64,000 nucleotides of DNA from Carcharhinus longimanus (lineage: Eukaryota), in contig JASCQW010000109.1 of assembly GCA_030264375.1 (NCBI GenBank), positions 69,119,362 to 69,183,361 of the forward strand, in the 5' to 3' direction. Positions within the stretch are counted from its first letter, which is position 1. Every line of letters starts with the position of its first letter. The notes below the pieces were generated by a model. That model was not told the origin of the DNA. It did not search any database and saw only the letters and a list, made by a program, of their open reading frames with translations. This document shows, piece after piece, positions 21,713 to 59,694 of this stretch. The position numbers and the translations under genes were made by a program.

Positions 21713-23617
21713 ATCCTAATGCATTGGAAACGGCNNNNNNNNNNAAAGTATGATGTGAAGTTTAACATACTTTTGAGTAATCAGCCCTCCCCTTTACCTG
21801 GTACAGTGGTGTGGCAAAACATCAAAACCAAACTTTAAAAACTAACTGCATAAAACTTAACTGTTAAAGTCGATGCATAGTACGCAGACAATAACGAATA
21901 CAACAAGAGACAACATGATGCACCAACCAAAAAAGTACTCACTGTTTCTGACAGCTGGTGCAAAATCCAAACAAAATTGAGTTGTGAACATTCTATGAAA
22001 TGTTATGCACATAATACTGTTATGAAGTCAATAAAAGGAATACTAATTGTATTTTCAGACCTGAGTATGAAAACAACTTTTCGAATTGCCTTTACAATTC
22101 TGCATCTGGCTATGCATATAATATCAATCTATATACTCAATGTCGCAGCCTTCCACGTCGTGAAATGTTAGTTTACGTCCATTCTGTACTAAACAGCACC
22201 AGTTGTGGATAAGAAGCCACACTCTGTCATGATAGCTCCTGCAACATTGGCTGAAAGGAACATAATAGACTGTGAAGGTGTGGGATTCGCTGTTTTGTTT
22301 TCTCCGAACCTCCTAGTCACCAGCTGAACTTTCCGTTGTTCCTCTCCTCTCCAATACCACTCTGAANNNNNNNNNNNNNNNNNNNNNNNNNNNNNNNNNN
22401 NNNNNNNNNNNNNNNNNNNNNNNNNNNNNNNNNNNNNNNNNNNNNNNNNNNNNNNNNNNNNNNNNNCAGCAAACATCCCCATGACCTTATCATGGAGGAC
22501 TGGTCATTGATGATTGTCTCCTAGTTGCTGCACTAATATCCACCAACTATCCATCCAGCACACGTTGTACAAGTCTTACTAATCTGGAGCAGTGCACTAA
22601 CGACAGAAGCTTCGCAGAGTCATAATTTGTTTTTCTCTGCCAGGCTGCTGTTAGCTCCGTTTTTTACTCTGCGTGGGTAGAACAGCTGCAAATTTTGCAA
22701 GGCAAGCGATTGTTGCAACAAGTGACAAACGTTTGGTGAATGTGGAGACCAGATAACTGCAGTTATCAACATGAAGTTGATGAAATTGCAAAGAAACTTG
22801 AAACATAATTGGATGCTGCCGATACGAATTTTCAGATAAGTGTTTGATAAAGTAAAATGTCGCTTACTCATATTGCAGCATATTGAATAAGATGGTCAGC
22901 GTCAACTTGGATAAACAATGACTTCAAGACCAAACATCTCCAGTCGTGAGAAATAGTGTTTTTTCAGATGGAAAGAGAGTTCGAGATACAGGGAGCCTGG
23001 TACAATGGGCAGGAAATTAGTAGATGGAATTTATTAGAGAGAAGTGTGTGAGGAGATGCGTTTTGGCTGGTAGGATAACCAGGAATACCATAGTTCTCAA
23101 GAGCTTAAAGTGGAAATGTGACCCTTTCGAGTGCGCAAATCTTTGAAGGCGCAATGTATTTTTGGAGAGTAAAACGTATGGAATTTAGATTTTCCGAAAG
23201 CAGGAAAGTTATGACGAACTTGTATAAAGCTCTGGTTAAGTAACAACAAGTATATTCCTTCAGGTTCTGGTCACCACAGTTGAGAACTGATGAAACATTA
23301 TCAGAATGTTCCTTAAACCTTCGTAAGTCTTGGAAGTGTATTGAATAACACTAAATTATTCTGGAAATATCCGCTTAAATCTGTAATCCTGCAGCTATGC
23401 TGAAATTATTAAACGAATGTACCTATAGAATGTTTTCTGCTTGGGCATATGGGATTCATATTTAGGGTCAAAACTTGTTACAATAGAATTTTGGAATAGA
23501 GATAGGATTTGCTTTCACTTTAGTAAAGCAAAGAAGACGAAGAACATTCAGTTATAGAAAGATTCAGCTTCTAGTTTTGACTTTTTTTTATTGAAGTTTG
23601 ACTTTAATGTAATCTCA

Positions 23618-23696
23618 TGTAGTTATAGGCTATGACATTTTGTGTCGCTGTCTACCAATAAGGTGAAGAAATCTAGCCAGTAATCCACCACCCATC
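23618..23696 (+). promoter_or_regulatory. Pcdh promoter module (CSE, CCAAT, CACCC box) of the deleted mini-exon
   Basis: Perfect TGTGTCGCTGTCTACCAATAAG starting at 23641, with the same spacing to ATCCACCACCC as in the intact genes. Confidence 0.9.
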
Positions 23697-23870
23697 CTGT
23701 CACATCAAAGGGAGGATGTAAACGTATCAGTAGCGCTTACGCAAACCAAATGCAACATCTCATCCGCCACACCTCCAGTTTCTCTAAGCTTGTCCTGAAT
23801 AACATGATAATGCAAAATATCGGTCAACAGTTCATTCACGCGCTTCGAACACATTTATTCTGCAGAAGAA

Positions 23871-24277
23871 ATGTTACGATCAGATAGTCAATGGACACTA
23901 AGCGTGCCGGCGATATCGTCCATTTTTGTGCTTTGTGTCTGGACTCTGACTTTGGGGCAGATCCGTTACTCCATTCCCGAAGAACAGGACTGAGGTGCAT
24001 CCGTAGGAAAAATCGCAGAAGATTTGGGACTGAACGTGGAAGAATTATCAAGCTTGATCATAAAGTTGTTGCAAATGTCCTTGAGGTATGCGGGAATGGA
24101 TCCTTTCCAGATGCATACCAATATAGAGTTCATTCGGCGCCACGAGCTACAACCGAGTTCATGGTTTTCAGACCCTTCTGTCTAACAACATCAGGTACGA
24201 ACCGGGAGAACAAGAGAACAGCTGTATCTGAATGTGATGGGAAAGTAACCAATGACTGGCCTCATAACATCAATGAG
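23871..24277 (+). pseudogene. Internally deleted protocadherin variable exon: signal peptide and start of EC1 fused to the cytoplasmic segment
   Basis: The frame from ATG 23871 reads MLRSDSQWTLSVPAISSIFVLCVWTLTLGQIRYSIPEEQD*GASVGKIAEDLGLNVEELS (TGA at 23991). After ~24052 another frame gives 'ANVLEVCGNGSFPDAYQYRVHSAP...NDWPHNINE', homologous to the tails of neighbouring exons. Donor GAG|GTAAGT at 24278. Confidence 0.9.
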
Positions 24278-25699
24278 GTAAGTGCTATGCATTGAAACAA
24301 AGCCAATGTAGCTCAGAAATGGAATTTGCGCAGATGCAGAGCAATTAGCCCAGTCGGAGTTAACGATCAGGTGCTGATATACCTCAATTTCTGACTTATT
24401 TTTCCAAGTTAATCGTGTTAAGTTCGTTACCATTTTGACCCACTTGTACTTGAGACAATGTAATGAAATATTCTGAAACAGTATTTCAGCTACTCGCAAT
24501 AATTTTTCTTATTGTAAACCTTTGAAAACTGAAAGGAGCTAAGAGAGTGAAGAAGGCCAGGTGGAGCTTATTTTAATTGGAAGCATTGCATGTAAAAGTC
24601 ATTTACCGTATCTTTTAGGAGATAGCAGTCAGGAGTATTTATTCATATCCATTTAGCAGGAGGGCATTCCATTCTACACCTGACTTGTGATTTGTAGATA
24701 TGCTTTATAAAAAGATTTAGAGAATCAGGATGTGTGTTACGTCCCTCAGGCTTCACATTCTTTGACATGGTCATAGCGCCAAAACATTTATGTGGCTCCC
24801 CCATTTTGGGTAAATGGTGACACTCATGTTGTTGATCCTGGGGGATTTAATAATGGTGATCTCTGTTAAAAGTGAAACGAAAATGCTTCGCCACCTGTTT
24901 GGGATAATCATTACTAATCAATTTTCTGGCTTGAACGTTATTTGCCAATTGTCAGCCGAAATATAATGTTACCCCAAGCATGTTGCATGCAGGCTTGGAC
25001 TGTTTTGTTATATCTGTGTATTGTACAATCATTAGCAAATATCCTTATATCTGACCTTAAGGTGAAGCGTTCATTCAGTACATTTGACCTATTTTGTTAT
25101 TGTATTTTATTTTGTTCCTGTGGAAGGTCACTGTTGAAGCAAATTAGCATGGTTGGGTGTAGGGAAATGCCCCGAAGAACGTTCTGGGTTGAGATATTTC
25201 CAATGACTACAACCGTTTGAACAGCCATAACTCAAGCCAGTGAAGTTTGTCATTAACTTAAATAATGCGAGGGCTCCTTGATACCAAAGGCTGCTTTGAT
25301 GTCAAAAGCTGTCACTCTTGTCATGACTCTGGAATTTTGGTCTCTTGTTCTTATTTGCTGCAAAGAGGGCTGGAGCCACGTATCATGTGCTAATAATTGT
25401 AAGTAGGTTGGAACGATGGTAATTCACCTGATTAGAATACCCTTGCACTTTGTGCCCAGGATTTTTTTTTCTAGTTGATGGCATATGAATTAGGAGAAGG
25501 AGTAACCCATTCTGACCTTCGAGGCCACCCCACAATTTAAAAATCATAGTTGATCTAATTGTAGCCTCATTGCAGTCTACCTACGATAGCCTTTCATCCC
25601 TCACTCATCAATAATCTATGTACCTCTACCTGAAAATATTCAAAGACTCTGCCGCCACTTCCTTTTGTGGAAGAAAATTCCAAAAGACTCAGGAACCTT

Positions 25700-29955: not shown

Positions 29956-32397
29956 ATGACAAAACCGGGCAGTCGCTCGGTGCTTATATCATCCACCTTC
30001 CTGCTTTGTGCCTGGAATCTGGTTTCCGGGCAGATTCGTTACTCCATTCCCGAAGAACTGGAACACGGTGTCTTCGTGGGAGATATCGGCAAAGATTTGG
30101 GTTTGCCCGTGGAGGAACTATTACGCCGTAGATTCCGAATGGTGTCTGCTTCGTCTTTGCAATATTTGGATGTAAATCGCATGAATGGAATTTTATTTGT
30201 GAATAAAAGAATAGACAGGGAACAACTCTGTGGACAAAGTGTTACCTGTTTACTGTCTTTGGAAGCTGTAATTGAAAATCCTGTGGAGCAATACCGCGTG
30301 GAAATTGAGATTCTGGATATCAATGATAATTCTCCGAGTTTTCCGAACAGTGAAATTCATTTGGAAATTGCGGAATCAGCGATGCCTGGAGCGCGCTTCC
30401 GCTTAGAACACGCTCATGATCTTGACGGAGGAAACAATTCTATCCGCACATACCAGCTCTCTCCAAATGACCATTTTATTTTAGACGTGCAGAGTCGCCG
30501 AAAATGGAAAGTGCCCGAATTAGTCTTGGAGAGCACTCTCGACCGAGAAAAACAAACAAAACATCATTTATTGCTGACGGCGTTTGACGGTGGATTCCCA
30601 GAAAGGACAGGTACCGCGCATATAACCATTACTATCTTGGACATTAATGATAATGCACCGGTTTTTCTGCAGTCGTTGTACACTGTCAGTCTAATGGAAA
30701 ACGTACCACCGGGCACTTTGGTGATTAACCTTAATGCTACTGATATGGACGAGGGTCCTAATGGTGAGGTGCTCTACTCGTTTGGTAGTTACAATGAAGA
30801 AGACATACCTAAAATAGTGCGGATTAATTCAACATCCGGGGAGATCCAGGTAAAGGGTATATTGGATTTTGAGGAAGCCAGTATTTATGAGATTGATGTA
30901 GAAGCTAAGGATCGTAGTTCGTCACCATTATCTGCGCACTGCAATGTGCGAGTGGAGATCAAAGATGTCAATGACAATCCTCCAGATTTGATATTGAATT
31001 CAATTTCGCGTGCAATTAGTGAAGATGCTCCTATTGGTACGCTAATAGCATTGATTAGCGTTACAGACCAAGATTTCAAGAACAACGCCTATACCGATTG
31101 TTCAATCTCTCCAAACGTCCCCTTTGACCTGAAATCTTCTTTTAAAAATTCATATAGACTCATCACAAATAATGTCCTTGACCGGGAAAGCACTCCTCAA
31201 TATAAAATCACGGTCACCTGTAAGGACCGTGGATTCCCTCCCTTAGCCACCAACAAAACAATCGTTGTGCAAATTTCAGATATAAATGACAATGCGCCGC
31301 GGTTTACGCAAAATTCATATACATTTTACGTGACAGAAAACAACGTCCCTGGTAGATCCATTGGATCAGTGACAGCTTTCGATCCTGACATAGGCCAAAA
31401 TTCACAAGTGTCTTACACAATGGTGCAGAACCAGATTCAGGCTTTGCCGGTGTCTTCGTATGTTTATATTAACCCGGAAAATTGCACCATCTATTCAAAG
31501 CGTCAATTTGACTACGAACAGCTTAAAAGTTTTCAGCTCCATGTTCAAGCTCAAGATGCGGGATTGCCAATGCTTTCAAGCAATGCTGTTGTGAATGTGA
31601 TTATCCTTGATCAAAACGATAATCCTCCAGTTATAATATCGTCTGGATCAAGAAAGCATGCCAATACAAGTGTGCCTCGCTCTGCAAACCCAGGGTATTT
31701 GGCAACAAAAATCATTGCTTCGGATGCTGATTCAGGTCAGAATAGTCGATTATTATATCAAGTTTTGCAAGCCAGTGATCCAGGTCTCTTTTCCGTTTCA
31801 CCCAATTCGGGGGAAGTGAGAAGTGTTCGACGATTTAAAGATACCGACGCCAGCATGCAAACGCTACTTATCCAAGTGAAAGACAATGGATATCCAGCTC
31901 TCTCCGCCACGGCCGCTATTACTTTGACAATAGTCGAAGAAAATATCAACATTCAAGCGGATTTTACTGAACCCCACAAGAGTTCCCAAAATTCACAGAG
32001 ATTAACCTTTTATATAATAATTTCTTTGGGAGCAACTTCGCTTTTTTTGCTGGTCGTTATAATTGTGCTTGCTGTGGCTATATGCCCAACGGGCAGAGGT
32101 CCCTCTTATGGTCGGATTTGTTCTCTTACTAGTTGTTGCTGCAGCAGGGAATTAGAATATCAGAATTCAAATGTCAATGTTCAAATTGTTCGGGATTCCA
32201 ATTTAATTCCAAATATCCTCGAGGTTCGTGGAAATGGCTCACCTTCAGGTACCTACCGTTATAAAATTCGCTCAGCGCCGGAACCAGCTGAAATGTTTCT
32301 CAGTCCGCAAATGGCTGGAACTCCTGGGAGGAACGCATTGTCTGTTTCATCGCAGAGCGCAAAGCTGAATAACAACTGGTCCGATGCATTACGCGAG
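29956..32397 (+). CDS. Clustered protocadherin variable exon; 814 codons to the splice donor
   Basis: 821-aa ORF with signal peptide, QIRYSIPEE, CGQSVTC, six cadherin repeats, TM 'FYIIISLGATSLFLLVVIIVLAVAIC' and a Cys-rich juxtamembrane region. Phase-0 donor GAG|GTGAGC at 32398. Confidence 0.95.
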
Positions 32398-42720: not shown

Positions 42721-43320
42721 AACGTAGGTGACCCGTGTATACACCAGCTCATCCGGTTCCCTCATGCTGTGATGAAGCATTGCCAAGCACTGTGCCACTG
42801 TACGGACTTTTTTTTTTGTTTCACTTTTCCTTTGTTTTCAGTCAACAGTGCACCTTCTCTTGCCACATCTTCATTCCCTTTGGCCCTGAAAGACGAACTC
42901 TTCTGTTTTTTTCAATCTGCCTGTCTTCGTTTTGTCCTTCTCCGATCCACCCCTTGTTCAGAATCTTTCCTAACTCCTCTCAGTTCTGAAGAAAGTTCAC
43001 AGGCTTCCTCGCTCCATAGATCCTGCCAGATTAGCAGAGTATTGGCAGCATTTCCACAGTGTACGACTAGCTAGCTTGAAAATTAAAATAAACACATGTA
43101 GCCTGTACAAAGCTTTTTATTTGGGGCCAAAAATGTGTTGTGTTATGTTAATAATGGACACAGCAAATGTAACAGATCATTTACTTGGTATCACTAAAAC
43201 AAACCAGTTATTATCAATACCTGATTTTTATGCTAGGTGCTCTCCTAAATTAATTTAATTATGACAAGACAGTTGAGATTTTCACAAATTACCCGAAGCC
43301 TAGCTTTAATATGATCTCAG

Positions 43321-43399
43321 TGTAGTTATAGGCAAAGACTCTTTGTGTCGCTGTCTACCAATAAGGGAAAGAAATTCAGCTGGAGATCCACCACCCAGC
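43321..43399 (+). promoter_or_regulatory. Pcdh promoter module (CSE, CCAAT, CACCC box)
   Basis: TGTGTCGCTGTCTACCAAT at 43344-43362. Nearly identical to 47689-47767. Confidence 0.9.
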
Positions 43400-43559
43400 C
43401 CCCAACGCTGAGAGATGAAAACAGGCAGATAACTGCCGTTCACATGAAAACACCGAGCTATCTGCTCAGAAGGTTTGAAGGTCTCCTCGCTTGTCAACGT
43501 ATCTCCTGCATTATCTGATTTACTTGCGATGGAATAACTGATAATACCGGACGCAAGAA

Positions 43560-43972
43560 ATGATGAAGACGGTAAAACACATTCCTGCAAAGGACATAAC
43601 GCTTACAGAGGGTTTTTTGATGAGAAAGACAGCCTCCATTTTGTTGCTTTGCGCCTGGAGCCTGGTTTCGGGGCAGGTTCGTTACTCCATTCCAGAAGAA
43701 TTAGAGTACGGTGCTTTGGTAGGAACAATCGCCAAAGACCTGGCATTAAATTCAGATGAGCTTTCAACTCGCAGATTCAGGTTCGTTCCCAAATCACCAT
43801 TACAATATTTTGATGTAAACCTCCAGAATGGAATATTATTTGTGAATACAAGAATAGACAGGGAAGCACTCTGCGGACAGAGTCTTACCTGCTTCCTGCC
43901 TTTGGAACTCGAGATTGATGATCCTGTGGAACAGTACGATATCGAGGTCGAGATTGTGGATATAAACGATAA
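43560..43972 (+). CDS. Protocadherin variable exon, 5' fragment (signal peptide and EC1), cut by an assembly gap; start is ATG 43560/43563 or 43620
   Basis: MRKTASILLLCAWSLVSGQVRYSIPEELEYG...CGQSLTC...EIVDIND is open up to the N run. About 10 differences in ~320 bp versus 48021-48340. Confidence 0.9.
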
Positions 43973-44072
43973 NNNNNNNNNNNNNNNNNNNNNNNNNNNN
44001 NNNNNNNNNNNNNNNNNNNNNNNNNNNNNNNNNNNNNNNNNNNNNNNNNNNNNNNNNNNNNNNNNNNNNNNN

Positions 44073-44335
44073 AGACAAATGGTGAAATTGAATTCAGTAA
44101 ACACCTGCAATTAAAAAGTTTAATGATGACCATGAAACGATTGCCGTAAAAAAAAACACATCGGGTTCACCTTTAGTGAAACAAATCTGCCGCCTTAATC
44201 TGGTCTGGCGTACATGTGACTCCGCAGCCACAGAAATGTGGTTGACTCTTAAATGCCTCTCTGAAATGGAGAGCTGTTTGGGATGGGCAATAAATGTTGG
44301 CCCAGCCAGTGACGCCCACATCGCATGAATGAATA
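44073..44335 (+). mobile_element. tRNA-derived SINE, family B, 5' end cut by the gap
   Basis: Aligns to 41540-41800 (aatggtgaaattgaattcagt...gtgactccgcagcc...gggcaataaatgttggcccagccagtgacgcccacatcgcatgaatgaat). Confidence 0.8.
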
Positions 44336-46730: not shown

Positions 46731-47688
46731 ACTTTTCCACTGAGCTGCTGACATCCAGGTCATTAATGTACATTACAAACAATAAGGGATCCAGCACTGA
46801 TCCCTGCAGAGCACCACTGGACCCTGGCCTCCAGTCACAAAAACAATCTTCAACCATCGCACTCTGCCTCTTGCCATGAAGCCAATTTTGGATCCAGTTA
46901 ATCAAATTGCTCTGGATCCCATGTGGGACCTTGTCAAGACTCCTCCTGAAGTCCACGTCGGCTACATCAAGTACACTACCGTTACCTAGACGCCAAGTCA
47001 CCTCCGTGAAAAATCCAGTAGAATTTGGAAGAAACGAAATCACTTTCAGCAATTTCAAAACATATCTCTGTGAGCATTTGGTTTACTTTTATCTTCCTGT
47101 TTCACATTTTTTTCCCTTTTTAAAATCAAAAGCACACCTGCTCTAAGTGCATACTTTGTTTCTTTCTTTGTCGTGTCTATATCACTTTGGCGTTGGAAGC
47201 TGTCTTTTTAATCTCTTCTGCCTTCCTTTTGTACTTATCCCACCCATTTCTTGCTCAGAGCCCATTTACCTAACTTTTCCCAGTTCTGAAAGAAGGCACA
47301 GGCCTGAAATTAAACTCTGTTTCACACTTTGCAGATGCTGCCAGATCAGCAGAGTATTTGCAGCATTTCCACACATTACGACTGTTTGGCTTAAAAACAA
47401 AATAACACAAAACACGGGCATGGCCTTTTGTATGGCCGCAAAAATATGCTGTATTGTCTTAAAAATGTATACTGCAAATGCAATAGTTAATTTACTTGTT
47501 AACAATAAAAAGAATCATATCACCAACACATGATTTTTCTGCTAGGTGCTCTCCTAAATTTATTCAATTACGCTTATTTATTAATGTCACAAGTAGGCTT
47601 GCATTAACACTGCGGTGAAGGTACTGTGAACATCAGAAAGTTGAGATTTTCACAAATTACCTGATGCCTAGCTTTAATATGACCTCAG

Positions 47689-47767
47689 TGTAGTTATAGG
47701 CAAAGACTCTTTGTGTCGCTGTCTACCAATAAGGGAAATAAATTTAGCTGGAGATCCACCACCCAGC
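47689..47767 (+). promoter_or_regulatory. Pcdh promoter module (CSE, CCAAT, CACCC box)
   Basis: TGTGTCGCTGTCTACCAAT at 47712-47730. Confidence 0.9.
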
Positions 47768-47930
47768 CCCCAACACTCAGGGATGAAAGCAGGCAGGTTA
47801 TTGCCGTTCAAATGAATATACCGAGCTATCTGCTGAGAAGGTCTGAAGGTCTCCTTGCTTGTCAACGTATCTGCTGCATCATCTGACTTTCTTGTGACGG
47901 AATAACTGATAATACCAGACACAAGAAACG

Positions 47931-50438
47931 ATGAGGATCGCAAAACACATCCCCGGAAAGGATTTAACACGTACAGAGTGTTTCTTGATGAGAAACACGG
48001 CGTCCATTTTGCTGTTATGTGCCTGGAGCCTGGTTTCGGGGCAGATTCGTTATTCCATTCCAGAAGAATTGGAGTACGGTGCTTTGGTTGGAACAATCGC
48101 CAAAGACCTGGCATTAAATTCAGATGAGCTTTCAACTCGCAGATTCAGGTTCGTTTCCAAATCGCCATTACAATATTTTGATGTAAACCTCCAGAATGGA
48201 ATATTATTTGTGAATAAAAGAATAGACAGGGAAACACTCTGCGGACAGAGTCTTACCTGTTTTCTGCCTTTGGAACTCGAGATTGATGATCCTGTGGAAC
48301 AGTACGATATCGAGGTCGAGATTGTGGATATAAACGATAACTCCCCCAGTTTCTCCAACAGAGAAATCCGTTTGGAAATTGCGGAATCGGCCACACCTGG
48401 AACCCGGTTTATTCTGGAGGCCGCACAGGATCCTGATGTTGGAAGTAATTCTGTCCAAATTTACCAACTCGCTCCAAATGAACACTTCGTCTTAGATGTA
48501 CAGACTCTTGGAAAATGGAAAATCCCTAAACTGGTGTTGGAGAAACCTCTTGACCGCGAGAAAGAATCGTCACAACATTTGTTGCTCACTGCTGTTGATG
48601 GCGGAATACCCGAGAGGTCAGGAATTGCTGAGGTAACCATCATTATCCTCGATAATAATGATAATGCGCCAATTTTCCAACAGTCCTTGTACGTTGCTAG
48701 TTTAAGGGAAGATGTTCCACTCGGTACTTTAGTGGCAAAACTGAACGCGACTGATTTGGATGATGGGCCCAATGGGGATATTGTTTATTCTTTAAGTAGC
48801 TACAGCGAGGAAAAAATACCGGAAGTATTTAGAATTAATGAAAATTCCGGTGAAATCAGCGTAAAGGGAAATTTGGATTTTGAAGAAATACATCTTTATG
48901 AATTTCACGTGGAAGCTAAGGACAAGGGGACACCATCACTATCTGCACACTGTACTGTTCGGGTGGACATTAAGGACGTTAATGACAATGCGCCGGAATT
49001 GATTTTAAAACCAGTTTCCAATACAATCAGCGAAGATGTTCCAACAGGGACATTGATAGCACTTGTCAGTGTTACAGATAGGGACGCACATAATAACGGC
49101 CGTACAGATTGTCAGATATCCTCACACGTCCCATTTGAGCTAAGCCCATCCTTTAGAAATTCATACAGACTGACCATAAATGGCGTGCTGGATCGGGAAC
49201 GTACCCAGGAATACGCAGTGACTGTGACATGTAAAGACAAGGGAAGTCCTCCGCTATCCACAAACAAAACCATGATTGTACAGATTTCAGACGTAAATGA
49301 CAACGGACCCAGCTTTGTACAGTCTTCACACACAGTGTATGTGGCCGAGAACAACTCACCTGGAAATTCAATTGGATCAGTAACCGCTTTCGACCCAGAC
49401 ACTGAACAAAATTCCCAGATATCCTATAGAATTCAGGAAAGTGATGTCCAGGGAGCTCCAGTGTCTTCATACGTTTCAATCAACTCCAAAAATGGCATTA
49501 TCTATTCGCAGCGCTCCTTTGATTACGAGAAGATTAAAAGCTTTAAGATCCGAGTTCAAGCTCAAGATGTGGGCTTGCCATTGCTTACTGGGAACATCAC
49601 CGTCAATGTGATTATTCTTGATCAGAATGACAACTTTCCTGTCATTACAACACCTAGCGCAGTGAACCACAGTAAGACGGCTGTGCCTCGATCTGCAGAT
49701 CCAGGATCTTTAATAATGAAAGTGATTGCTTCTGATGCTGATACTGGACAGAATGCACGACTGTCCTATCAAATCCTGCAAGCCACTGACCCAGGCCTAT
49801 TTACAGTTTCACCAACCTCGGGAGAAATAAGAAGCGTTCGCCGATTTAAAGATAGTGACGCCGCCACACAAAGACTCGTCATCCAGGTAAAGGACAATGG
49901 ACACCCGCCTCTCTCCGCCAGTACAACGATTGCACTCACTATAATTGAACAGAATGAACAAATTCAGTCAGAGGTACAGCATGCTCACCGAAATGTGCAA
50001 CAATCTTCCGATTTGGCATTTTATATAATAATTTCCTTGGGAATAATATCTTTCTTACTTCTTATTGTAATAATTGTCCTTGTTATTGTCATTTGCCCAA
50101 GCGAAAGACCATCTGGCCGCACTGGGAATTGTCTTCTTACCAATTGTTGCTGTGCCAGAGAATTAGAGGCCAAAGCGAGAGGGCAGAATTCGCATGTCAA
50201 CCTTCAGGTTGTGCCAGACTCCACGTTAATTCCGAACATCCTTGAGGTTCGAGGAAATGGTTCTCTTTCAGAGCCATACCGTTACAAAATTCGATCAGCA
50301 CAAGAGGCAGCCAAGATGGAATTGATGTATTTCGCTCCAGTGAATCCAACAAGTGGATCTTCTAGGAAGAATAACAGAACATGCGCGTCAGGGCAATCTG
50401 AAAGCTTAACGAAAAACTGGCCATATTTTTCTGGTGAA
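47931..50438 (+). CDS. Clustered protocadherin variable exon (start ATG 47931 or 47988); possibly an assembly chimera of two paralogues
   Basis: 861-aa ORF with signal peptide, six cadherin repeats, TM 'FYIIISLGIISFLLLIVIIVLVIVIC' and 'LTNCCCAR'. Phase-0 donor GAA|GTGAGT at 50439. Confidence 0.95.
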
Positions 50439-50724
50439 GTGAGTATCACACGTTTCAGTAAAGAAAAAAAATGGAGGATGACAGCTTGTGGACCAGCACC
50501 TGGAAGAAACAGATAACCTAAAGTCCGGGTGCTGATCCAGCTGTTATGGACTTCCAACAATTTCTATTTTTGTCCCGCTTTGATTTTATCAAACCTCTCA
50601 ATGTATTGTTTCGTACTACATTGCAATTGAACAAATCTGATCCAGTTTATATTAGCCAAAAGCAGTCCACTAACATTGTTTAATTTCCTCCGGAATGTGT
50701 GTAGTATCAAATGTTAGGTTGTAA

Positions 50725-57231: not shown

Positions 57232-58061
57232 TTATTCTCGATCAGAATGACAACTATCCTGTCATTACTACACCTAGCGCAGTGAACCACAGTAAGACGG
57301 TTGTTCCTCGATCTGCAGAGCCAGGATCTTTGGTAATGAAGATAATTGCTTCTGATGCTGATTCTGGACAGAATGCACGGCTCTCTTATCAAATCCTGCA
57401 AGCCACCGACCCAGGACTATTTAGAGTTACACCAACCTCGGGAGAAATTAGAAGTATTCGCCGATTTAAGGATAGTGACGGCGTCACACAAAGACTGGTC
57501 ATCCAGGTAAAGGACAATGGACACCCTCCTCTCTCCGCCAGTACAACGATTACACTCACTATAATTGAACAGGATGAACAAATTCGGTCAGAGGTTCAGG
57601 ATCCTCACCGAGATGTGCAGCAATCTTCCGATTTGGCATTTTATATAATAATTTCCTTGGGAATAATATCTTTTTTACTTCTTATTATAATAATTGTCCT
57701 TGTTATTGTCATTTGCCCAAGCGAAAGACAATCTGGCCGCACTGGGAATTGTTTTCTTACCAATTGTTGCTGTGCCAGAGAATTAGAGGCCAAAGCGAGA
57801 GTGCAGAATTCGCATGCCAACCTTCAGGTTGTACCAGACTCCACATTGATTACTAACGTCCTTGAGGTTCGAGGAAACGGGTCTCTTTCAGAACCATACC
57901 GTTACAAAATTCGATCAGCACCAGAGGCAACCAAAATGGAATTGATGTATTTCGCTCCAGTCAGTCCAACAACTTCTGGGTCTTCTAGGAAGAATAATAG
58001 AACATGCCTCTCAGAACAATCTGAAAGCTTAACGAAAAGCCGGCCGTATTTTTCTGGTGAG
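57232..58061 (+). CDS. Protocadherin variable exon, 3' fragment (end of EC5, EC6, TM, cytoplasmic segment); 5' part lost in a gap
   Basis: Open frame ILDQNDNYPVI...FYIIISLGIISFLLLIIIIVLVIVIC...PYFSGE, highly similar to 49612-50438. Donor GAG|GTGAGT at 58062. Confidence 0.93.
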
Positions 58062-59694
58062 GTGAGTATCACACGTCTCAGTAAAGAAAACAATATTGGA
58101 AGATTATAGCTTGAGGACCAGCACCTGGAAGAAACAGATAACCTAAAGTTCAGGTGCTGATCCAGCTGTTTTGGATTTCCAGCATTTTCTATTTTTGTCC
58201 CAGTTTGTTCTATCAAAACCCTCAATATATCGTTTCTTACTACGTTGCACGTTAACCAACATCGTTTTTGCCAAAAAGCAATCCACTTACGTTTCATAAG
58301 GAATTAATGCAATGTCAAATATTAGGCTTTACTGTGAATAATTAGTACTCTCATCTGTTTCTTTTTTTCCAATATCTAACATTTTGTTGTAGTCATTGAA
58401 TCATGCAGCACAGAAAATGCCCTTGAGCCTGCACATGCATAAACTGCCACAAAATATCACACTAATTCCACTTTCCAGGAATTTTCCCATATCCTTGAAT
58501 GTTGACATTTCAAGTGCTCATCTAAATACTTTTTAACGGTTGTAAGTTTTCCGGCCTCCCCTACCATCCCATGTCGTGCATTGCAGATTCCCACCACCCT
58601 CTGAGTGAAGGAATGTTTCCTCAAATTACCTCAGAATCTCCTGCCCCTCACCCTAAAGCTTTGTCCCCTCGTGGTAGTCCTCTTTACCAAGGGAAACAGC
58701 TACTGCCTACTCAGGGTGTCCAAGCCCCTCATGTTATGTTAACAATCATCAAATTCAATCACTATCTTATGGAAATCCCAGATATTAATTAATGCTGAGC
58801 TAGAACGAAGGCAATTACCTGGTATACTCTAAAGCATAATTTGTGGTATACAATTAAGACTTATAAAATAATCAAACACTTTATCTATTCATAGATTTCA
58901 ACCGTTAGATATATCTTGTAATTTTGCCAGTTCCTTGTCAGCTAGACCACGCAGCAGCAAAATATATATTCTGGAAATGGATTTGGCTACATTCAATTTC
59001 ATCGTACCTTGTTTATGTAGTTGCCTACCATGCTTATATTCTGTCGATGTGATTGGAATTTCAACATGCCCACAATATGTTGGAAGGTCATAATGGGAGC
59101 AACAGCAGTGATTGTTTGTTTGTAAATGTGATACTGTACATTTACATAATCTGCGTGATCAAGGAGCACAGACAGGAGAGATAAAACTGAACTAAATAGG
59201 ACGCCATACGTTGCTGGAAATTTTTACTCAAGGACTCCAAAGTCACTTCCAGAATGTTGCAAAGTTTCTCATCCTTGCTTCCAGAGAAGCAGAGGAAGGC
59301 TGCACATTCATTTTTACGAGTGAAAATGCTAGGGAATATCAGACGAAAATAACATGGATCAACCAAACATTTAGAAGGAAAGGTAAACATTAAAAGTCAA
59401 ACTTTTACAATTATTCATTTACATTTATGATGTGGAGTGGCGGGGCGGGGNNNNNNNNNNNNNNNNNNNNNNNNNNNNNNNNNNNNNNNNNNNNNNNNNN
59501 NNNNNNNNNNNNNNNNNNNNNNNNNNNNNNNNNNNNNNNNNNNNNNNNNNGTGGGGGTGGGGGGAGGCGGGGAGAAGGTGGGATGCAGTCGATTGTAAGT
59601 GTCTACATCACTGACACTGCAATTTGCACTGGTAACCAAATAGTTTCACTGTGGCCTTCTTCCATTTCCAACAATTGCAGGGGAAATATAATGA

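Follow-up and report, generated by a model that had tools for sequence, protein, structure and literature searches.

What becomes of a protocadherin (Pcdh) variable exon once its ectodomain and transmembrane (TM) segment are gone: is it simply dead, or are its promoter and the rest of its cytoplasmic tail still put to use? The question is raised by a remnant in the window, the 64,000-nt stretch of Carcharhinus longimanus DNA analysed here (contig JASCQW010000109.1, called C109 below; C109:69119362-69183361, forward strand; coordinates given without C109 are window positions). A first-pass annotation had proposed an isoform without ectodomain or TM, with a recent pseudogene as its fallback. We found the fallback to be the best-supported reading, given intact orthologs, a disabling lesion and an inherited reading frame. 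The remnant is very probably a young relic of a Pcdh-mu variable exon that was already decaying, which is also the ordinary explanation.

Genomic setting and comparison samples

The Pcdh cluster around the window spans at least 68.4-69.75 Mb of C109, and adjacent exons in the window match cartilaginous-fish Pcdh-mu proteins. Counts of paralogs, promoters and loci cover 1.06 Mb of C109 around the cluster. Eight of the 22 sequencing runs listed served as comparison samples (X1, X2, X4, X6, X10, X11, X13 and X17). X6, X10 and X11 represent organisms B, C and D, respectively, X2 and X4 are two samples of one other study, and X1 possibly has the same source as the assembly. The run from organism C covers 24162-24330 only, with no differences in 169 bases.

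Anatomy of the remnant

The features of the remnant are as follows.

23618..23697, plus strand: Pcdh variable-exon promoter module; CSE core (CGCT box) the same as in neighbours, flanks partly diverged, GATC motif absent
23750..23887, plus strand: upstream ATGs 23750, 23804 and 23810, in the tail frame, ended by TAG 23885-23887
23871..23993, plus strand: ancestral start, with signal peptide and beginning of EC1, cut by TGA 23991-23993
23891..24277, plus strand: alternative open frame of 129 codons, a +2 reading of signal/EC1 codons fused to the variable cytoplasmic tail
24050..24052, plus strand: deletion junction with an unmatched A at 24051, from comparison with full-length relatives
24053..24277, plus strand: final 75 codons of the variable cytoplasmic domain
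24278..24283, plus strand: splice donor GTAAGT, consensus, phase 0

The two reading frames described by the first-pass annotation were both confirmed. The frame from ATG 23871 encodes a signal peptide and runs for 40 codons until TGA 23991-23993. ATG 23891, which is the A-TG inside the ancestral signal-peptide CAA TGG (Gln-Trp), opens 129 codons that reach the consensus donor GAG/GTAAGT at 24277/24278 in phase 0 (134 aa if unspliced). Neither ORF of the remnant contains a Pfam cadherin domain. The 23891 frame has no TM-length hydrophobic stretch, with a best 19-residue hydropathy of 1.14 compared to 1.98 for the signal frame.

Downstream of the donor and on the same strand lie three exons matching the mu constant region (C109:69248014, 69279998 and 69423932), the third with 93 residues identical to Mustelus asterias P0013. 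The acceptor of constant exon 1 (CAG/GTGGGA) is also phase 0, and splicing from 24277 would therefore give a 266-aa frame from ATG 23891. In this predicted product, 54 new residues come first, followed by 75 from the variable tail and by the mu constant domain from all three constant exons. The constant exons stretch over 176 kb (C109:69248014-69424206), with a 144-kb intron preceding exon 3. A more distant match resembling constant exon 3 is found at C109:69818361.

The remnant shares two properties with functional Pcdh-mu variable exons, a CSE promoter about 200-300 bp before the start and a phase-0 donor 5' of the mu constant exons. It fails to encode six EC domains and a TM in a single frame, as 2,077 nt are gone and a stop lies at 23991. 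Like a tail-only isoform, it has an ATG frame that runs on into the constant domain with no TM, but a start and new N-terminus that arose or were kept by selection are not found (see below). It does carry a disabling lesion in an exon that has intact orthologs, as a pseudogene or relic would. Judged from the DNA, the remnant thus belongs with relics and not with functional mu exons, and would be intracellular-domain-like only if translated.

Orthologs and the order of events

The exon belongs to the Pcdh-mu variable exons, and its orthologs are intact in four shark lineages. Its tail groups with five orthologs at 100/98 support (S. torazame P0042, Heterodontus P0044, Pristiophorus P0029, Chiloscyllium P0064 and Hemiscyllium P0123). 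Its N-terminus groups with four of these, from catshark, horn shark and bamboo sharks, at 93/86, the sawshark match being tail-side. A similarity search of longer proteins with the tail as query returned five candidates, none significant; because it also missed the known orthologs, it is no evidence. Searching with residues 640-817 of P0042 returned four proteins and no Mustelus ortholog, in an insensitive search that missed P0064 too. An exact look-up in the protein collection found none of six window proteins and is uninformative because two intact neighbours were among those absent.

Organisms E and F are full length at this locus. They have 2081 letters between 24050 and 24055; their in-phase exon measures 2484 nt (828 codons) and equals Heterodontus P0044 in length. 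Relative to both, the net loss in the window is 2,077 nt, from EC1 residue 61 through the TM, and the deletion also takes about 37 juxtamembrane cytoplasmic residues. The left flank ends at 24050 and the right flank begins at 24052.

The first-pass annotation had asked whether related sharks carry the same deletion. It is present in X1, X2 and X4 but absent from the full-length E and F, and from the nearer organisms B and D, which are shortened otherwise. Within the same interval, B is 178 nt short, with an additional A at 24173, and D is 261 nt short, with further gaps of 1 and 3 nt. Because the cytoplasmic part ahead of the junction is only about 37 residues long, these losses must cut the TM or the ectodomain, and in neither organism would a protein of normal length be encodable from this exon. 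The B exon is in phase overall (2307 nt, 769 codons). The D exon, at 2220 nt, would be in phase too, provided that its 1-nt gap is spurious; that gap falls in a G run covered at depth 2. Both frames may therefore still be open. In B, the 178-nt loss shifts the frame and the A at 24173 restores it just ahead of a shifted-frame TAA at 24183; a compensated, shortened open exon is possible there if the loss sits close to 24052.

Codon 41 reads CGG in D, E and F, TGG in X2 and X4, and TGA in the window, whilst X6 has G at 23993. On this comparison, the TGA at 23991-23993 is private to the lineage of the window sample and later than the big deletion. The signal frame of X2 and X4 stays open until 24183-24185, where it stops 92 nt short of the donor. 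The TAG at 23885-23887 is likewise derived on the window lineage, the corresponding base in D, E and F being C.

A young relic would have formed in three steps: a mu variable exon began to decay, it then lost 2,077 bases by internal deletion, and the stop arose later in the window lineage. The promoter core and donor would persist since little time has passed, and the remnant likely makes no selected product. If the promoter fires, most ribosomes would be expected to start at or before ATG 23871. Translation from this ATG would end 284 nt short of the splice junction (92 nt short in X2 and X4), likely making the transcript a substrate of nonsense-mediated decay, for which the 50-55-nt rule applies. 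Leaky scanning to ATG 23891, which has T at -3, might yield traces of a 266-aa tail-only by-product, and 24161 is another possible leaky start.

Substitutions in the tail

Compared with full-length relatives, the tail carries the substitutions P>L, R>C, L>F, T>R, S>C, P>L, G>R and R>E, the first P>L being deduced from the position at the joint. Nine tail sites are listed at which E and F differ from the window but D does not, and at least eight of them are non-synonymous. The probability of at least 8/9 is 0.24 under neutrality, 0.046 at omega 0.5 and 0.007 at omega 0.3; since 11 of the 13 E differences are listed, up to two shared sites may be missing, and two such sites would, if both synonymous, raise the last value to about 0.05 (hand calculation). 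Through the shared changes PFSP has become PFCL and an invariant R has become E, and S. torazame P0042 has the E/F residue at 7/7 codons. The E-only and F-only tail changes among those listed comprise four non-synonymous and three synonymous, the tail being weakly constrained even in intact lineages.

The relic breaks 6/28 invariant tail residues, and two intact orthologs break 5/33 and 4/32. Because these rates are alike, tail decay ahead of the deletion is suggestive only. The substitution pattern fits neutrality and not omega 0.3, but it excludes omega 0.5, roughly the constraint suggested by the E-only and F-only changes, only marginally. It supports earlier decay without proving it. Taken together, these data suggest that the tail of this exon was already decaying before the big deletion. 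Since the deletion, 2-3 differences have accumulated in 387 coding bases compared to 12 differences across 1014 bases of flank (Fisher p = 0.37 and 0.77), a trend towards fewer in the ORF. With only 2-3 differences in the ORF, selection after the deletion is beyond the reach of this test.

Promoter and donor

The CSE is located at 23643, 228 bp 5' of ATG 23871. The 79-bp promoter had been described as essentially consensus, which holds for the 24-bp core (23640-23663) but not for the module as a whole. Amongst the CSE promoters of the 1.06 Mb, the module (23618-23697) is 21st of 30, and it has no GATC motif, whereas 26/30 have one. X2 and X4 show no differences within it. At a lineage divergence of 4-5%, the 24-bp core would survive by chance with a probability of about 0.3 and the 8-bp donor with about 0.7. 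A paralog with seven stops at C109:69541558 has a CSE that scores higher than that of the relic and keeps the donor GAG/GTAAGC. As both elements can survive by chance and this broken paralog retains them, the intact promoter core and donor do not show function. Stops were found in the matches of 12/61 Pcdh-like loci across the 1.06 Mb, some of them adjoining N gaps. A scan of the 1.06 Mb for an NRSE-like pattern gave no match, using a single exact pattern that is insensitive.

That a dying exon has been turned into an encoded intracellular domain (the soluble 266-aa protein from ATG 23891), or into a promoter choice spent on nothing, is quite improbable on this sequence; if true, null choice and Pcdh signalling without cleavage could be studied here as a natural experiment. 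The second possibility can be put more broadly: the exon is dead, and its promoter or CSE is selected as a 'null choice' or CTCF insulator that dilutes or balances promoter choice in the mu subcluster. This would agree with a core identical to that of the neighbours, an intact donor and the lack of X2 and X4 differences. It would also agree with the binding of CTCF by mammalian CSEs, where promoter-associated sites insulate upstream promoters (available text of PMC7811963), and with the promoter competition and enhancer sharing proposed for mouse Pcdh-alpha (available text of PMC4151104). However, survival of the core by chance in roughly 30% of cases, the modest rank of the module and its missing GATC motif weaken the argument, and other broken exons retain CSEs equally well. 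For a mammalian alpha exon to be chosen, an exonic CTCF site some 700 bp downstream is required as well (available text of PMC7811963); a deletion like this one would have removed it if mu exons had such a site. We therefore consider selection on the promoter unlikely.

A possible hybrid origin

A young relic could also have been assembled from two old tandem copies, with the 5' half of one and the 3' half of the other. Such a hybrid would still be a relic. Organism D hints at two diverged copies, differing from the window at 27/271 bases on the 5' side compared to 4/279 on the 3' side (Fisher p = 9e-6; 23780-24330). By contrast, E and F differ from the window symmetrically (p = 0.28 and 0.87), as do B (45/751 and 34/649) and X2. 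The 5' and 3' halves of the remnant fall with the same set of orthologs, and no second close copy was found in the 2.68-Gb genome, the best other match being 84% and covering the promoter only. Because the E, F, B and X2 comparisons are symmetric, the depth-2 contig of D is a likelier hybrid than the window remnant, for which a hybrid origin is distinctly unlikely. The D contig may fuse two diverged copies, as a hybrid gene or as an assembly chimera, hinting at an old tandem duplicate.

Origin of the alternative frame

The Arg-rich N-terminus, taken as new by the first-pass annotation, proved to be the +2 reading of EC1 codons. ATG 23891 and its stop-free +2 frame are already present in full-length E and F once the listed differences are applied (17/20 of the 5'-side differences for E and 16/20 for F). 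An ATG-open +2 frame of 46-47 codons also occurs in 3/29 intact paralogs, and the neighbouring exon at 29956 reads SLLHSRRTGTRCLRGRYRQRFGF in its +2 frame, which is Arg-rich and almost identical. R+K residues in the +2 stretch number 12 in 30 for the relic, whereas the 29 paralogs have a median of 6 and reach 10 at most. Such an outcome was uncommon amongst 57,000 similar deletions simulated in 19 intact paralogs: 3.4% produced an out-of-frame fusion that stayed open as far as the donor and added at least 40 new residues; counting any ATG, the share was 16%. Because the open +2 frame predates the deletion, its fusion to the tail was a 1-in-3 event for this exon. By these measures the open alternative frame is not much beyond chance, and both ATG 23891 and the Arg-rich frame look inherited, not selected.

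The derived TAG at 23885 detaches three upstream in-frame ATGs from the tail frame. Intact paralogs carry 2-6 upstream ATGs each, and the upstream ATG count was for this reason dropped as a case against translation. Changes in the 23891 frame on the window lineage (four non-synonymous, one synonymous) look neutral. Neutral substitution, stops or frameshifts in related samples had been named in advance as signs against a coding frame; of these, substitutions that look neutral were seen, and the frame is open in three samples.

A functional soluble isoform of 266 aa from ATG 23891, putatively acting like a gamma-secretase-released intracellular domain without cleavage, is very unlikely. The frame is open, in phase 0 and lacks a TM-length hydrophobic stretch, its openness is shared by three samples, and the TGA that arose later leaves a shorter competing first ORF. 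Intracellular domains released from cPcdhs can enter the nucleus (available text of PMC7339444 and PMC7811963). Against this, the ATG and frame are older than the deletion, the substitutions appear neutral, and the frame would be expected to stay open through 3-4 substitutions with a probability of 0.87-0.90. An ATG in better context also lies upstream. Constant exon 3 already encodes RKKKKRTKRSEKR, so the Arg-rich start would be superfluous for import.

The deletion junction

X1, X2 and X4 each contain the entire stretch within a single contig that crosses the junction, with 1 difference to the window in X1, and 14 and 15 over 1401 bases in X2 and X4, respectively. Contig depths at the junction in X2 and X4 are similar to those of their other contigs. 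As these samples are up to 1% apart and all span the junction in single contigs, it is not an assembly error. The absence of about 2 kb near 24052 with no N gap, reported in the first-pass annotation, was thus borne out, at 2,077 nt net against E and F, and the check it had set for an assembly deletion came out negative. There is no N between 22467 and 29853. A purely artefactual loss, which might be suspected from the many N gaps elsewhere in the assembly and from a junction palindrome containing AAGCTT and GATC, has a practically negligible chance of being correct, given that X2 and X4, which come from a different study and are about 1% diverged, each span the junction with one contig (depths 21.9 and 15.9).

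The palindrome is perfect over 12 bp (24047-24058) and is completed by the unmatched A. A Hi-C ligation or restriction-site artefact at this site was considered and ruled out by the independent samples that cross it. No sign of repeat-mediated deletion was found: the two sides of the joint share no letters, and 23600-24400 contains no long repeat, the deleted letters themselves not being readable. The palindrome may be a trace of templated end-joining, or chance.

Comparison with known protocadherin systems

The human alpha, beta and gamma clusters are each depicted with relic and pseudogene variable-region sequences (available text of PMC7766791), and the anole has 14 pseudogenes compared to 71 intact exons (available text of PMC2764143). 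The accessible portions of PMC4977153, PMC8787164, PMC4978886 and PMC2926608 deal with general Pcdh organisation and add nothing further on relics. Like the human and anole relics, the shark remnant is a disabled variable exon in a tandem array, with intact orthologs elsewhere and lineage-specific degeneration. Unlike them, it results from one internal deletion that kept both ends (promoter core, start, tail and donor) and has an ATG frame into the constant exons. Described Pcdh pseudogenes mostly carry point stops or 1-nt indels instead.

The remnant resembles exons of the cartilaginous-fish mu subcluster (Callorhinchus milii mu5 P0031 and mu7 P0067) in grouping with mu orthologs and lying upstream of the mu constant exons. 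It differs from them in lacking EC1 from residue 61, EC2-6, the TM and about 37 cytoplasmic residues, and in its stopped signal frame. Its predicted 266-aa product would be soluble and combine part of a variable tail with the whole constant domain, as does the gamma-secretase-released CTF2 of alpha and gamma Pcdhs (available text of PMC7339444 and PMC7811963). Unlike CTF2, it would be a direct translation product whose first 54 residues are out of frame and from which the juxtamembrane part is missing. In sharks, a mini-exon of this type, running from promoter to donor, was not found described in the literature searched, which lacks key primary papers.

Short variable exons have reportedly been seen in the zebrafish Pcdh-alpha cluster, although we found no paper on them in the literature searched. 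The shark locus offers a well-bracketed snapshot of the death of a Pcdh variable exon, from full length in E and F, through trimmed in B and D and gutted in three samples, to stopped in one. It also indicates that an intact promoter core, a donor and an alternative frame are weak evidence of function in Pcdh clusters. If brain tissue translated the spliced frame, a Pcdh intracellular domain would arise naturally and independently of cleavage, and the locus would test whether an empty promoter choice alters the neuronal identity code.

Other incomplete exons in the cluster

Three segments of the window (43304-44114, 47672-50516 and 57234-58109) are closely related young paralogs, with 91% and 88% aa identity to the exon at 47931. 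The pieces at 43560 and 57234 each stop at a 100-N gap; their middles are absent from the assembly, not shown to be deleted. In the next subcluster, two broken exons keep CSE promoters, at C109:69541558-69543765 (seven stops) and C109:69567350-69569383 (several frameshifts). Fragmentary or frameshifted Pcdh exons at various stages of decay, with no CSE match, were found at C109:69054185-69056400, 69502216-69504016, 69549042-69549464 and 69557934-69558053. The variable exons in C109:69607451-69753273 also lack a match to the CSE pattern used, unlike most upstream exons, and may have a variant promoter motif.
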